A stretch of 32,000 bases of DNA from Elusimicrobia bacterium GWD2_63_28. GTDB taxonomy: Bacteria > Elusimicrobiota > Elusimicrobia > Elusimicrobiales > UBA9959. The DNA lies in the NCBI GenBank assembly GCA_001799895.1, contig MGUI01000051.1:1-32000 (forward strand). The letters run 5' to 3'. Made by a program: the position numbers and the translations under genes. The notes beneath the pieces are model-generated. The model saw nothing but the letters and a program-made list of their open reading frames with translations, had not been told where the DNA came from and made no database searches. This document shows positions 12,033 to 20,041 of this stretch, piece after piece. Within the stretch, counting starts at the first letter, position 1, and every line of letters starts with the position of its first letter.

Positions 12033-12323
12033 ATGAAGGACAATATATTGGAAGTTTATGGCATGGAGGCGGCGGCGTTCAAGGCGCTGGGACACCCTAC
12101 GCGCCTTTTTATCGCCCACCAGCTCGGCAAACGAGACACCTGCGTCTGCGAGCTTACCGCCATGGTGGGTGATGATATCTCAACCGTCTCCAAGCACCTG
12201 TCGGTGCTGCGCGCCGCGGGCATCGTGGATTCTGTAAGGAAAGGCAACCAGATAATTTACCGGCTTAAGCTGCGCTGCGTGCTGAATATGAGCGTCTGCG
12301 CGAAATTCGGGAAGGGGAAATAA
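12033..12323 (+). CDS. ArsR/SmtB-family metalloregulator (ArsR1)
   Basis: Starts MKDNILEVYGMEAAAFKALGHPTRLFIAHQLG; 'DTCVCELTAMVGDDISTVSKHLSVLRAAGIV' with CxC in the metal-binding helix. Confidence 0.9.
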   Translation: MKDNILEVYGMEAAAFKALGHPTRLFIAHQLGKRDTCVCELTAMVGDDISTVSKHLSVLRAAGIVDSVRKGNQIIYRLKLRCVLNMSVCAKFGKGK

Positions 12324-12324
12324 C

Positions 12325-13626
12325 ATGATCTGGAAAGACGAGTGGAAATGGCTTACCGGTTTCGTAACGGTCTTCTTTGTGCTGTATTTCCTCCCCGTGG
12401 GCTCGGCCCGGTTCGACGGGGCTATAACCGAGGCGCTGGAACTGACCAAGTGGTACACGCGGGAGCACGTGGTGCTCTGCCTCATCCCGGCCCTGTTCAT
12501 AGCCGGCGGTATAGCCGCCTTTGTCAGCCAGTCAGCGGTAATGAAGTATTTCGGGGCCAAGGCTAATAAATTCCTCTCTTACGGCGTGGCCTCGGTATCC
12601 GGCACCATCCTGGCGGTCTGTTCCTGCACCGTGCTGCCGCTGTTCGCGGGCATCTACAAGCGCGGCGCGGGCCTGGGCCCGGCCATTGCCTTCCTCTATT
12701 CCGGCCCGGCCATCAACGTGCTGGCCATAGTGCTGACGGCCCGCATACTCGGCTTCGAACTGGGGGCGGCCCGCGCCATAGGCGCCGTGGTTTTTAGTAT
12801 CGTCATCGGGTTGGCCATGCATTTCATGTTCAGGCATGAGGAGGCGGCCAAGGCCGCGGCGCAGGCGGACCTGCCCGAGCCTGAGGTCAAGCGCCCGCTC
12901 TGGCAGACCTCCCTCTATTTCGCCTCCATGGCCGCGGTGCTGGTATTCGCCAACTGGGCGTACGCCGAAGCCTCCGACCCCGTATTTTATGCCGTATACA
13001 AGATAAAGTGGCCGCTTACGGCCTTCTTTGCGGCGTCATTGGGCCTTATGCTCAAGGTCTGGTTCGGTGCTAGCGGCCTGCGCCTGACACTGTCGGCCAT
13101 CCCCGCTGTATTGCTGGCCTTGTTCATGCCGGACCTGCCCATCCTTTCCTTCTCGGCGGGCTTTATCGGCCTGTCCTGGGTGCTTAATTCTTCCGGCGAG
13201 GGGGAACTGGCCGACTGGTTCTCCTCCTCCTGGGACCTTTCCAAGCAGATATTCCCGCTGCTCATCGGCGGCGTGCTGGTGTCGGGCTTCCTGCTGGGCC
13301 GTCCCGGTCACGAGGGCGTGATCCCTTCTGAGTGGGTGGCCTGGGCTGTGGGCGGCAATTCCTTCTCGGCCAACTTCTTCGCTTCCATAGTGGCGGCCTT
13401 CATGTACTTCGCTACGCTTACCGAGATACCGATACTGCAGGGGCTTATCGGCTCTGGCATGGGCAAGGGCCCTGCGCTCACGCTGCTATTGGCGGGCCCG
13501 GCGCTGTCGCTGCCCAGCATGCTGGTGCTCAAGACCGTGATGGGCGTTAAAAAGACCGCCGCCTACGTGGCGCTGGTTATAATAATGTCCACCTTCAGCG
13601 GCATGTTCTTCGGAGCTTTCTTTTAA
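12325..13626 (+). CDS. YraQ/ArsP-superfamily (DUF318-type) permease
   Basis: 433 aa multi-spanning protein; 'GTILAVCSCTVLPLFAGIYKRGAGLGPAIAFLYSGPAINVLAIVLTARILG', repeated in the second half 'ALTLLLAGPALSLPSMLVLKTVMG'. Confidence 0.85.
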   Translation: MIWKDEWKWLTGFVTVFFVLYFLPVGSARFDGAITEALELTKWYTREHVVLCLIPALFIAGGIAAFVSQSAVMKYFGAKANKFLSYGVASVSGTILAVCSCTVLPLFAGIYKRGAGLGPAIAFLYSGPAINVLAIVLTARILGFELGAARAIGAVVFSIVIGLAMHFMFRHEEAAKAAAQADLPEPEVKRPLWQTSLYFASMAAVLVFANWAYAEASDPVFYAVYKIKWPLTAFFAASLGLMLKVWFGASGLRLTLSAIPAVLLALFMPDLPILSFSAGFIGLSWVLNSSGEGELADWFSSSWDLSKQIFPLLIGGVLVSGFLLGRPGHEGVIPSEWVAWAVGGNSFSANFFASIVAAFMYFATLTEIPILQGLIGSGMGKGPALTLLLAGPALSLPSMLVLKTVMGVKKTAAYVALVIIMSTFSGMFFGAFF

Positions 13627-13635
13627 GGAGGAAAT

Positions 13636-13878
13636 ATGAAAAAGATACAGATACTGGGCATGGGCTGCCCCAAGTGCAATAAGCTCTACGCGGCCGCGGA
13701 AGCGGCGGCCAAGGAGCTTGGCATAGAGTATGAGATGGAAAAGATAAGCGATATCAACAAGATAACCGACATGGGCGTGATGATGACGCCTGCGCTCGCC
13801 ATTAACGACGAGGTAAAGGTCGCCGCCAAGATCCCGTCCATGGAAGAACTTAAGAAAATAATCTCGGAGGCCAAGTAA
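13636..13878 (+). CDS. small thioredoxin/glutaredoxin-like protein (redox-active disulfide family, TM0996/MTH895-like)
   Basis: MKKIQILGMGCPKCNKLYAAAEAAAKELGIEYEMEKI; CxxC, cis-Pro 'MMTPALAIND'. Confidence 0.88.
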   Translation: MKKIQILGMGCPKCNKLYAAAEAAAKELGIEYEMEKISDINKITDMGVMMTPALAINDEVKVAAKIPSMEELKKIISEAK

Positions 13879-13879
13879 T

Positions 13880-17587: not shown

Positions 17588-17595
17588 GAGGCGCT

Positions 17596-18015
17596 ATGAA
17601 GATACTTTTCCTCTGCACGGGTAATTCCTGCCGCAGCCAGATGGCCGAGGGCTGGGGTAAGAAACTCCTGTCCGGCAAGGCGGAGGTGTTTTCCGCCGGC
17701 ACCAACCCCGGCACGGTAGATCCCCAGGCGATAAAGGTGATGGCGGAGGCCGGCGTGGATATTTCCGGTCACCGCTCCAAGCACGCTTCCGAATTCAAGG
17801 ACGTGGCCTTCGACCTGGTGGTGACGGTCTGCGACAAGGCCCGCGAGAGCTGCCCCGTCTGGTTCGGCAAGGCGGAGAAACTGCACAAGAGTTTCGAGGA
17901 CCCGCCGCACCTGGCCAAAGAGGCCAGGAGCGAGGAAGAGGCGCTGGCCCATTACCGCCGCGTGCGCGACGAGATAAGGGATTTCGTGGCGGGCCTGCTG
18001 AAAGGAGATAAATAA
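17596..18015 (+). CDS. arsC: arsenate reductase ArsC, low-MW-phosphatase (thioredoxin-coupled) type
   Basis: '[24 protein letters not shown]', '[17 protein letters not shown]', 'HKSFEDPPH'. Confidence 0.94.
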
Positions 18016-19073
18016 TGGACGGAGTAATGAAGAAGCTGTCTTTTCTGGACCGCTATCTCACCATGTGGATCTTCCTGGCCATGGGCGCGGGCGTGGGGCT
18101 GGGCTGGCTTTGGCCGGTTGCGGTGGCGGACTTCAATGCCGCCTCCAGCGTGGGGACCACTTCCATACCGATAGCCATCGGCCTGATACTGATGATGTAT
18201 CCGCCGCTCGCGAAGGTGAAGTACGAGGAAATGCACCGCGTCTTTGCCAATAAGAAGGTGCTGGCGCTGTCGCTGGCGCAGAACTGGCTGGTAGGCCCGG
18301 TGCTGATGACCGCCCTGGCCATCCTGTTCCTGCGCGACAAGCCGGAGTATATGGTGGGCCTGATAATGATAGGCCTGGCGCGCTGCATAGCCATGGTGAT
18401 AGTCTGGAACGACCTCGCCCGCGGCGACAGGGAATACTGCGCGGGGCTGGTGGCTTTCAACTCCGTCTTCCAGGTGCTGTTCTTTCCCGTCTACGCCTGG
18501 TTCTTCATCACGCTGGTGCCGGGCTGGTTCGGCCTCGAGGGCGCGGCCGTGAATATCACCATGGGCGAGATCGCCAAAAGCGTTTTCATCTACCTGGGCG
18601 TCCCGTTCATAGCCGGCATACTGACCCGGTTCTCGCTGATCAAGGCCAAAGGCCGGGAGTGGTATTCGGAGAAATTCATTCCCGTCATAAGCCCTATCAC
18701 GCTGATAGCGCTGCTTTTCACGATAATAGTTATGTTCTCCATCAAAGGCGAGAACATAGTGCAGGTGCCGCTCGACGTGGTGCGGATAGCCGTCCCCCTG
18801 CTGGTCTATTTCGTGCTGATGTTCCTGGCCTCGTTCTGGATGAGCCGCAAAGCCGGGGCCGACTACCCGGAATCGGCTACGCTGTCGTTTACGGCAGCGT
18901 CCAACAACTTCGAGCTGGCCATCGCGGTGGCCATAGCCACCTTTGGCATAAGCCACGGGGCGGCCTTCGCCGCCGTCATAGGCCCGCTGGTGGAGGTGCC
19001 GGTGCTCATAGGCCTGGTGCATGTCTCGCTGTGGATAGGGCGGCGCTGGTACGGCACGCAGCAGGGTGGTTGA
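18015..19073 (+). CDS. acr3: ACR3-family arsenite efflux permease
   Basis: '[27 protein letters not shown]', '[20 protein letters not shown]', '[43 protein letters not shown]'. Confidence 0.95.
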
Positions 19074-19129
19074 AATCCTTTCAAGGATATTGTGAAATAG
19101 GGGTGTACTTACAGTTCAAGGGGGGAAAT

Positions 19130-20041
19130 ATGAAACATGGAGCAAACCGGCTGCTGTGCGCCGGGATCCTGCCGGCTTTGCTGCTGGCGGGCTGTTCGCG
19201 CAGGAACGAAGCTACGGTCGGGACGCCGGCCAACCCGCTGGTGGTGGTGCTGTCTCCGGCCCACGTGCCGTCCTCTCCGGACGCGCTGGGCGTAATACAG
19301 AGCCGGCTGGAGGCCGCCAGCGGGCTTTCGGTGCGGCTGGACGCGGCGCAGAGCCCCGCCGCCGCCATAAACGCCTTTTCCACGGGGCAGGCCGACGCCG
19401 GGCTGCTGACCCTGGACGAGTTCCTTGTGGCCAGGGAGGAATACAAGGTCAAAGCGGAGCTGCAGGCCCTGCGCCGCGCGGGGCTGTCGGATTATGAAGG
19501 GGTGCTGCTTACCCGCATAAGCGGCGGCGCCGCCAACGTGGAGGAACTTGCCGGCAAGAAAGTGGGCTTTGTCGGCCCTTATTCGGTCAGCGGCTTTACC
19601 CTGCCGGCCATACACCTGGAAAAAGCCGGGGTCAGGGCGCAAGTAGACTTCTCCCTCAGCCACGAGGCGGTGCTGAAGAAGCTCCTTGCCGGAGAGGTGC
19701 TGGCCGCGGCTACCTATGCCAGGCAGGTTTCCCGCGATCCCGGCCTGAAGGTGCTTGCGGTTACGGGCAGGGTGCCCAACGAGCCGCTGGTGATGCGCCG
19801 AGGTCTTGCCGCCGACAAGCGAGAGGCCCTGAAGGCGGCTTTCATGAGCCTGCCCTCCACGCCCGAAGGCCGCCAGGCCCTGGGTGAGGTGGCCGACATC
19901 ACCGGCTTCAGGCACGTGCAGGAAGGTGTTTACCGCCCGCTGCACGACCTGCTGCGCTCCGAGGGCAAGGCTGTTTATGACCTGGTACCGGACGGCTGGG
20001 ACATACAGAAACTCAACCAGCCGTATGAGCAGGGCCTTTAA
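19130..20041 (+). CDS. PhnD-like phosphate/phosphonate/oxyanion-binding lipoprotein
   Basis: Lipobox LLLAGCSRR; 'VVVLSPAHVPSSPDALGVIQSRLEAASGLSVRL', 'GQADAGLLTLDEFLVA', 'LAGKKVGFVGPYSVSGFTLPAIHLEKAG'. Start set at 19130 rather than 18659. Confidence 0.82.
   Translation: MKHGANRLLCAGILPALLLAGCSRRNEATVGTPANPLVVVLSPAHVPSSPDALGVIQSRLEAASGLSVRLDAAQSPAAAINAFSTGQADAGLLTLDEFLVAREEYKVKAELQALRRAGLSDYEGVLLTRISGGAANVEELAGKKVGFVGPYSVSGFTLPAIHLEKAGVRAQVDFSLSHEAVLKKLLAGEVLAAATYARQVSRDPGLKVLAVTGRVPNEPLVMRRGLAADKREALKAAFMSLPSTPEGRQALGEVADITGFRHVQEGVYRPLHDLLRSEGKAVYDLVPDGWDIQKLNQPYEQGL

Follow-up and report, generated by a model that had tools for sequence, protein, structure and literature searches.

Mercury methylation genes hgcAB within an arsenic resistance locus of Elusimicrobia, at a position held by arsM in related genomes

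Described hgcAB and ars systems and the Elusimicrobia locus

Why microbes carry hgcAB, and what controls the expression of these genes, is a long-standing question behind methylmercury production, and the earlier link to arsenic consists of neighboring ars genes and one regulator studied in one deltaproteobacterium. Co-location of hgcAB with arsR, acr3/arsB, arsC, and arsM has been published (McDaniel et al. 2020 (PMC7438021, Fig. 6); PMC10349881; Gionfriddo et al. 2022/2023), many of the examples being metagenome-assembled genomes (MAGs) from arsenic-affected aquifers, including the Rifle site, from which the groundwater genome studied here, judging by its name, seems to come. In Pseudodesulfovibrio mercurii ND132, hgcAB is under the control of an ArsR-like regulator that also responds to S-adenosylhomocysteine, and arsenic induces these genes along with two separate operons, arsR-acr3-arsC and arsR-arsP-arsE-DGC (bioRxiv 10.1101/2022.10.17.512643). 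Here we analyzed a 32-kb stretch of DNA from Elusimicrobia bacterium GWD2_63_28 (assembly GCA_001799895.1, contig MGUI01000051.1, positions 1 to 32,000; hereafter the window), in which hgcAB lies between two groups of ars genes. Genes were called as open reading frames (ORFs) and assigned to families by Pfam and NCBIfam profile searches.

As in the published hgcAB-ars loci, hgcAB of the window is flanked by arsR, arsC, and acr3, and, as in ND132, an ArsR/SmtB regulator (here ArsR2) adjoins hgcA; the statement in a preliminary description of this DNA that ArsR-like regulators near hgcAB are already known agrees with the published linkage and ArsR control. However, in ND132 the regulator gene has the same direction as hgcAB and shares its transcript, with the three loci dispersed around the genome, whereas in the window arsR2 is divergent and the three units are contiguous. 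The ND132 regulator also has, according to its authors, a distinct four-cysteine site, whereas ArsR2 has a classical CVC motif and extra C-terminal cysteines. A further comparison is provided by the arsM-containing ars operons of anaerobes, ArsM being an S-adenosylmethionine (SAM)-dependent arsenite methyltransferase. Sister loci of the window are classical arsM operons whose ArsR2, hesB, arsC, acr3, and phnD are orthologous to those of the window, whereas the window lacks arsM and carries the corrinoid/ferredoxin pair hgcAB beside the same regulator. In the literature searched, we found no description of hgcAB with ArsP_1, ArsE, ArsF, ArsG, or DGC, nor of a locus-level alternation of hgcAB and arsM, a shared operator, or repeated switching, and both the exchange between arsM and hgcAB and the link to ArsPEFG seem to be new.

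The preliminary description had listed 13 genes, and all 13 were found at their positions and in that order as ORFs matching the expected Pfam or NCBIfam family. It had taken them for two complete ars-type modules around hgcAB; judged by gene order in relatives, they are better described as two tandem, putatively ArsR-controlled units of one chromosomal ars locus conserved in Elusimicrobia. In both the left unit (arsR1 to arsG) and the right unit (arsR2 to phnD), neighboring genes abut or overlap, and hgcBA lies on the - strand between these two + strand units. The arsG stop codon TAG (15497-15499) and the hgcB stop codon (15505-15507, - strand) converge with a gap of 5 bp, a tight junction that recurs (3-12 bp) in two relatives (L001 and L009; L numbers designate the loci compared), whereas the divergent hgcA and arsR2 start codons have 73 bp between them.

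HgcA (15795-16787, - strand; 330 aa) scores 412.6 bits against NF040863 (cutoff 275), the match spanning model positions 1-324 of 325. Its cap-helix sequence GINVWCAAGKG contains N(V/I)WCA(A/G)GK with the cobalt-ligating Cys, and N100-K107 are invariant in an alignment of 14 diverse HgcA sequences. HgcB (15505-15798, - strand; NF040864 125.3 bits, cutoff 99) has two CX2CX2CX3CP motifs, CIGCGMCAVVCP and CMECGACAGNCP, of a 2x[4Fe-4S] ferredoxin, a conserved Cys near residue 73 in VGCAQ, and a C-terminal CC within TCC. Model scores and motifs place both proteins in their families, and Hg(II) methylation is their predicted activity. An N-terminal Cys-Sec extension of HgcA has been proposed by Haft (bioRxiv 10.1101/2022.07.06.499078); in the window we rejected such an extension, as no Cys-stop occurs in the frame upstream, which in addition would be antisense to arsR2. 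Two hgcAB loci with different ars contexts (L007 and L009; HgcA 64% and 82% identical to that of the window) were found in one MAG, GCA_021786295.1, which may represent either two copies in one genome or a mixed bin.

The preliminary description had raised synteny confined to this contig or a mis-assembled join as a concern. A false join between contigs carrying hgcAB and ars genes, for which the sole ground is that the source is a MAG, has a vanishingly small probability in our estimate. Five assemblies made independently from JGI and ENA samples (L001, L002, L093, L094, and L095) show the same gene order and junctions, GC content stays at 0.58-0.67 throughout the window with no composition break, and the flanks on both sides (efflux, peptidase, and cell-wall recycling/housekeeping genes) are syntenic with relatives; together with the conserved, recurrent synteny of the locus, these observations speak against an artefact.

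hgcAB and arsM at one site of the locus

For the comparison within Elusimicrobia, we used a metagenome sample of close ArsG relatives. Those without hgcAB have the order arsR-arsP-arsE-(DGC)-arsF-arsG-(arsR2)-arsM-(hesB)-arsC-acr3-phnD. In L090, L091, and L092, one co-directional array, arsR-arsP-arsE-(DGC)-arsF-arsG-arsM-arsC-acr3-phnD, has the same outer flanks as in the window, and its ArsM scores 276-283 bits against NF008823 (cutoff 263). Four alternatives were observed after arsG: arsM; arsR2-arsM (with hesB in some loci); arsC directly; and the arrangement of the window, hgcBA pointing back toward arsG and arsR2-hesB pointing away. Within this locus sample, arsM was present in 0/12 distinct hgcAB loci and hgcAB in 0/17 arsM loci. 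Where an arsR2 ortholog is present, it stands beside arsM, which then follows it (five loci: L096, L098, L101, L105, and L125), or beside hgcAB, from which it is divergent (at least seven loci: L001, L003, L005, L010, L012, L094, and L095), never beside both or neither. The earlier observation that no arsM is visible was upheld by a phmmer search of the 32-kb window, which found no arsM homolog, and this absence proved to be the informative feature, with hgcAB sitting where sister genomes have arsM.

Two loci of different type, L099 (arsM) and L095 (hgcAB), give a 90% alignment as far as the arsG stop codon and a 93% alignment from the hesB start codon on, whereas the interval between these points measures 790 bp with arsM in L099 and 1736 bp with hgcBA and arsR2 in L095; this pair displays a clean cassette swap. 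In a tree of Acr3 plus ArsC, L095 and L099 grouped with 100% bootstrap support and the window grouped with L092 and L115 with 99%; the hgcAB-type loci were monophyletic in 0/200 replicates, and the two states interleave. Judged from these patterns, the hgcAB and arsM cassettes behave as if exchanged more than once at this locus. ArsG groups the window with L094 and L001 (94% identity), whereas the right flank groups it with the arsM-type loci L092 and L115, and this disagreement between left and right flank genealogies suggests recombination within the locus. The right unit is divergent from hgcAB in L003, L005, L010, and L012, with HgcA identity to the window down to 66%, and L008 and L011 (HgcA about 65-67%) have kept arsC-acr3 behind a different ArsR.

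The junction of the two units is a permissive site: in L096 it is occupied by the unrelated genes for CstA and a dynamin-like GTPase, and L098 has a second arsP there. Such junctions, together with the differing flank genealogies, would be compatible with neutral hitch-hiking, in which hgcAB would be functionally independent and would travel with often-exchanged, insertion-tolerant ars clusters. We regard this explanation as rather improbable, because in unrelated phyla hgcAB also occurs within compact co-directional ars arrays, because arsenic induces hgcAB in ND132, and because of the fixed spacing between hgcA and a predicted operator that is described in the next section. The locus is not a mobile genomic or resistance island: no tRNA was found in a scan of the window and no integrase or transposase gene among its scanned ORFs.

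A 25-nt inverted repeat (84% complementary; 15508-15532 and 17557-17581) is formed by the 3' ends of hgcB and hesB, whose products have similar tails rich in Cys, Gly, and Asp. Its two arms nearly coincide with the limits of 15503-17600, the segment that stands here in place of arsM when compared with L092. The repeat may be a chance feature of GC-rich coding sequence or a recombination substrate; repeats of similar quality are common in the region.

The control region shared by arsR2 and hgcA

ArsR2 (16861-17247, + strand; 128 aa; PF01022 36.9 bits, cutoff 22; NF033788 76.8 bits, cutoff 55) contains ELCVCEL, which we take to be the classical arsenite-site motif of Escherichia coli R773 ArsR, and has C-terminal PCC and GVCVVGGNC cysteines. 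The divergent control region between arsR2 and hgcA (16825-16863, both strands) includes a palindrome, CATATATGC-GTATAATA-GCATATATG, at 16838-16863, upstream of and overlapping the arsR2 start. The palindrome encloses TATAAT (16848-16853, + strand) and, in the hgcA sense (- strand), TATTAT, the putative -10 boxes of arsR2 and hgcA, respectively. A -35-like TTGCTC at 16825-16830 precedes TATAAT with a 17-nt spacer; among the relatives, TTGACA stands 17 nt upstream in 5/12 aligned loci, and two others have TTGAC at this distance give or take about 2 nt. Because the arsR2 ATG (16861) comes 7 nt after TATAAT, within the right arm of the palindrome, the arsR2 mRNA is probably leaderless. An alternative in-frame ATG of arsR2 occurs at 16843, within the predicted operator.

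This palindrome is conserved in 12 Elusimicrobia loci, hgcAB-type and arsM-type alike, whereas the adjacent sequence is not conserved; its exact pattern is matched in 20 loci, and the window holds a single exact match. It lies about 53 bp from the hgcA start in the window and 49-60 bp from it in nine relatives, in which HgcA identity to the window falls to 66%, and this constancy argues against the hitch-hiking explanation considered above. In L009, which has no adjacent arsR2, it precedes hgcA by 49 bp and has the same orientation with respect to that gene. We also considered whether the palindrome merely encodes the ArsR2 N-terminus (MRIIAYM), and rejected this explanation since it occurs without an arsR2 ORF before hgcA in L009 and before the second arsP in L098; the TTGACA hexamers 17 nt upstream speak further against coding alone. 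A second copy of the ArsR2-type operator is present in L009 (6975-6994), between a divergent arsR and two genes (212 and 118 aa; 7033-8034) that lie directly upstream of the operator-hgcAB segment and have no NCBIfam match.

We infer that one predicted operator would serve the back-to-back promoters of arsR2 and hgcA. Since the conserved palindrome lies over the arsR2 -10 element and 49-60 bp from hgcA, arsenite-type co-regulation of hgcAB with arsC and acr3 is predicted. We therefore consider it likely, with some reserve, that this is an ars locus of two ArsR units, arsR1-arsP(PF03773)-arsE-DGC-arsF-arsG (unit 1) and arsR2-hesB-arsC-acr3-phnD (unit 2), in which hgcAB at the junction is controlled by ArsR2 along with arsC and acr3, and in which arsM and hgcAB are alternative cassettes. 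ArsR2, with its arsenite-type ELCVCEL site, would repress transcription in both directions from the operator in the 73-bp intergenic region; its release by arsenite, or by some related thiophilic ligand, would then turn on hgcAB along with arsC and acr3. Recruitment of hgcAB into a putatively ArsR2-controlled ars locus is the explanation that the comparative data best support, without proving it, and it would mirror the arsenic induction seen in ND132. The suggestion in the preliminary description that HgcAB may belong to a broader arsenic response fits both the conserved, recurrent synteny and the conserved predicted operator close to hgcA, and the locus context favors, short of proof, the published view that mercury methylation forms part of the arsenic response. 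Near-identical ars loci that differ only in arsM versus hgcAB beside the same repressor and operator provide a natural comparison, in which ArsR2/arsenite control in a second phylum, as well as HgcAB standing in for ArsM, become directly testable. If arsenic does widely govern hgcAB, arsenic geochemistry would belong in methylmercury models for aquifers, paddies, and sediments.

Several points weigh against this reading. The metagenome sample consists of contigs of 10-20 kb around the locus, not whole genomes, which limits the mutual exclusion of arsM and hgcAB to the locus, and the interleaving in the Acr3 plus ArsC tree might have arisen by flank recombination instead of repeated replacement of the cassette. 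One Bacteroidales locus (L081) has arsM and hgcAB within one cluster, so that the alternation holds for this lineage but is not general. Control by ArsR2 and a response to arsenite are predictions for this organism, and the ligand of ArsR2 is uncertain, given that the ND132 regulator also answers to S-adenosylhomocysteine. In the hgcA sense, no good -35 box was found and the promoter scan made no call. At the arsG/hgcB junction, the terminator scan found no terminator, the total number of sites being close to the shuffled expectation. As arsG and hgcB converge with so short a gap and no terminator was detected, read-through from unit 1, antisense through hgcBA, could oppose hgcAB expression rather than co-induce it. 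Such transcripts of the arsR1 unit would then continue in sense into arsR2-hesB-arsC-acr3.

The arsR1 unit has its own predicted sigma-70-type promoter (11997-12025, + strand; TTGACA-17-CAGAAT, a 10/12 match in the promoter scan), and an imperfect inverted repeat, TCTATT...AATAGA, between its hexamers may be an operator. Because both this promoter and the inverted repeat are distinct from those of arsR2, the two units probably have separate operators. A scan of the whole window at Rfam gathering thresholds found no riboswitch or other RNA, including no cobalamin or SAM/S-adenosylhomocysteine element near hgcA.

Linkage in other phyla, the left unit, and accessory genes

To survey other phyla, 80 species-representative hgcA loci were collected, and their six-frame ORFs were searched with the window proteins; because many contigs are short, the resulting counts are lower bounds. 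Within 10 kb of hgcAB, acr3 or arsC was detected in 31/80 loci (in 27/80 within 1 kb), an ArsR-family gene in 36/80, and any family of the left unit (ArsP_1, ArsE, DGC, ArsF, or ArsG) in 12/80. The density of ars-family matches was 0.11-0.13 per kb within the first kb and dropped to zero at 7.5-10 kb, a distance range in which 169 kb was surveyed, and this steep decay indicates that the hgcAB-ars association is non-random and far above background. A sandwich between two ars-type gene groups had been thought unusual, but both kinds (acr3/arsC and a left-unit family) were near hgcAB in 9/80 loci, and in at least L031, L045, and L070 hgcAB is flanked by or embedded in co-directional ars clusters. 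A Cyanobacteriota MAG (L031) has arsR-arsR-arsP-hgcA-hgcB-acr3-arsC-arsE-arsF-arsG and a Bacteroidales MAG (L045) has arsR-arsE-arsF-arsG-arsP-arsC-hgcA-hgcB-acr3, both co-directional with tiny gaps. The sandwich in the window is one instance of a recurrent pattern. The neighborhood comparison that had been proposed across Elusimicrobiota and other phyla bears out hgcAB-ars synteny as conserved and recurrent, but within Elusimicrobia does not tie the left unit specifically to hgcAB.

The left unit starts with arsR1 (12033-12323, + strand; 96 aa; PF01022 HTH_5 42.8 bits, cutoff 22; NF033788 81.6 bits, cutoff 55), whose product has a CVC motif (TCVCEL) at the alpha-3 site and further C-terminal Cys; its orthologs lead the unit in L001, L090-L092, and L094-L116. 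The next gene (12325-13626, + strand; 433 aa) encodes a PF03773 permease (236.9 bits) that scores 111 bits against the sister equivalog SaoE (cutoff 325) and 109 bits against the SO_0444 Cu/Zn efflux equivalog (cutoff 300). Its membership in ArsP_1 is at the family level and any substrate would be a prediction; its CSC motif is invariant in 14/14 homologs across phyla. ArsP of Campylobacter jejuni is a methylarsenite efflux permease, and a review distinguishes two arsP clusters whose function is probably different (PMC6205960). The window permease shares PF03773 and an ars operon with acr3 with this protein, but the likeness is family-level only.

The genes that follow encode an ArsE/MTH895-family thioredoxin-like protein (13636-13878, + strand; 80 aa; TIGR00412 98 bits, cutoff 62) with CPKC, the CPxC being kept in 17/17 homologs across phyla, and a DGC-domain Cys-rich protein (13880-14245, + strand; PF08859 100 bits). 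The latter is an optional member, present in L091, L098, L105, and others and absent from L001, L090, and L092. PF08859 is named for a D-G-C motif (AIDGCQVGC in the window), and the protein is Cys-rich and probably zinc-binding rather than a diguanylate cyclase, as the DGC-domain protein is called in the ND132 preprint (bioRxiv 10.1101/2022.10.17.512643). ArsF (14226-14810, + strand; NF040494 91.2 bits, cutoff 60) comprises a hydrophobic N-terminal anchor, PCC, a low-complexity linker, and a domain with an invariant CYSC, the CxxC being kept in 15/15 homologs across phyla. ArsG (14807-15499, + strand; NF040495 220.5 bits, cutoff 200) is a membrane protein with two invariant intramembrane Cys (SPCP and FCP), both likewise kept in 15/15 homologs.

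Pfam/NCBIfam matches of its homologs, which are the sole basis, suggest that ArsG is related to DsbD/CcdA: PF13386 DsbD_2 is matched by 5/25 close ArsG homologs, the L045 ortholog has a DsbD match (E 2.8e-9), and several homologs are annotated as CcdA in public sources. A phmmer search of ArsG against PDB sequences gave no match even at E 10, and an AlphaFold2 model built with 25 close homologs had a mean pLDDT of 53.9, too poor for a fold search. Given the invariant Cys pairs in all members and this relation, ArsE, ArsG, and ArsF might form a cytoplasm-membrane-periplasm relay of thiol reductant or soft metal(loid)s beside the permease, with a topology that would be analogous to NmerA-MerT-MerP. 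Shewanella arsEFG reportedly function in nitro-reduction and efflux of synthetic aromatic arsenicals. The three window proteins, whose genes are adjacent except for the DGC gene between arsE and arsF, all exceed the NCBIfam cutoffs built on that system, which was described in S. putrefaciens 200 (Chen, Zhang and Rosen 2019, Environ Sci Technol 53:6182, as cited by PMC9144182). In contrast to that system, they occur here in groundwater and sediment Elusimicrobia, with a putatively DsbD/CcdA-related ArsG and with redox-type Cys pairs that are invariant in all three.

In the preliminary description, the permease, thioredoxin-like, DGC, ArsF, and ArsG proteins were proposed to handle the organometal or thiol-metal products that HgcAB makes, a role that could include the export of methylmercury. 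Left-unit families near hgcAB in several phyla, often in a co-directional array, would agree with this proposal, as would the Cys pairs suited to soft metals and the fact that a methylmercury exporter is not known (PMC10083202). However, the left unit occurs in Elusimicrobia whether the locus has hgcAB, arsM (17 loci), or neither (two loci). Among hgcAB-bearing relatives, it is present in L001, L094, and L095, and in L009 it stands without the right unit. It is absent from six others (L003, L005, L008, L010, L011, and L012), and L007 has a reduced arsP-Trx merged into one unit, arsP-Trx-arsC-acr3. Because its presence is independent of hgcAB in this lineage, it looks like an autonomous ars unit rather than an HgcAB accessory, and we think a dedicated role in handling HgcAB products improbable. 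The ArsP/ArsE/ArsF/ArsG thiol-rich unit can nevertheless be flagged as a recurrent partner of hgcAB across phyla.

The exchange of cassettes could also reflect functional substitution, with HgcAB acting as a corrinoid-dependent methylase of arsenite or an arsenic-thiol in place of SAM-dependent ArsM and the trivalent methylated product leaving through the ArsP-family permease. The mutual exclusion of hgcAB and arsM at one locus, each beside the same ArsR2 and operator, is what such a substitution would produce. In L031, L066, and L070 the permease gene directly adjoins hgcA, and in L045 it is found about 0.4 kb upstream of hgcA, with arsC between. In ND132, deletion of hgcAB reportedly left the strain with a higher sensitivity to As(V) than that of the wild type. 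Nevertheless, ND132 cultures with arsenic-induced hgcAB yielded no mono- or dimethylarsenicals, the L081 cluster has both methylases, and the permease and arsEFG are equally common in loci with arsM or with neither methylase. We therefore hold the substitution to be unlikely, albeit worth considering. The broader idea is similarly doubtful: HgcAB and ArsM would be interchangeable, the native, selected role of HgcAB would be to methylate arsenic or some other thiophilic metalloid, either to detoxify it or to make an antimicrobial, mercury methylation would be a side reaction, and the Cys-pair proteins (the ArsP-family permease, and ArsE, ArsG, and ArsF as a DsbD-like relay) would move or reduce substrates and products. 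Recruitment of hgcAB under ArsR2 control remains the reading we prefer to both.

As had been noted for the window, no mer genes (merR, merA, merB, merT, or merP) were found among the ORFs scanned, small ORFs outside 10-23 kb being only partly covered.

The other right-unit genes, all on the + strand, follow arsR2. The HesB/IscA-like protein (17279-17587; 102 aa; PF01521 39 bits; TIGR00049 50 bits, under the 58.8 cutoff) has a vicinal GCCG and a C-terminal SCGDGCSCGH tail; its gene occurs in hgcAB-type loci and also in some arsM-type loci (L096, L098, and L099) and is therefore not specific to hgcAB. ArsC (17596-18015) has a CX5R loop (CTGNSCRS) and a downstream Cys pair (VCDKARESC). Scoring above the cutoff of PF01451 (75.7 bits) but under that of the pI258-type equivalog TIGR02691 (129.8 bits, cutoff 174.3), it is classified by these matches as LMWP-type (thioredoxin-coupled type) arsenate-reductase-like rather than as the equivalog.

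Acr3 (18015-19073) is an arsenite efflux permease (TIGR00832 451.6 bits, cutoff 282.8). In L001, acr3 appears to be in fragments (7700-8780; two weak Acr3 matches and small called ORFs), which could be a pseudogene or an assembly error; L001 and L002 are sister assemblies of the 91%-identical relative, and L002 shows an acr3 fragment at the contig edge with a similarly weak match. The gene after acr3 encodes a PhnD-like periplasmic substrate-binding lipoprotein (19127-20041; PF12974 130.6 bits; lipobox LLAGC), an orphan with no ABC permease or ATPase partners nearby, whose ligand might, as a guess, be an oxyanion such as arsenate or phosphate. It follows acr3 in most Elusimicrobia relatives, hgcAB-type and arsM-type. 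In L091 (arsM-type), a radical SAM/SPASM maturase-like gene (11001-12230; TIGR04317 273 bits, under cutoff) replaces phnD after acr3. Further downstream in the window, a WD40 beta-propeller protein of 289 aa (21525-22394) is kept near the locus in L001, L003, L005, L008, and L090.

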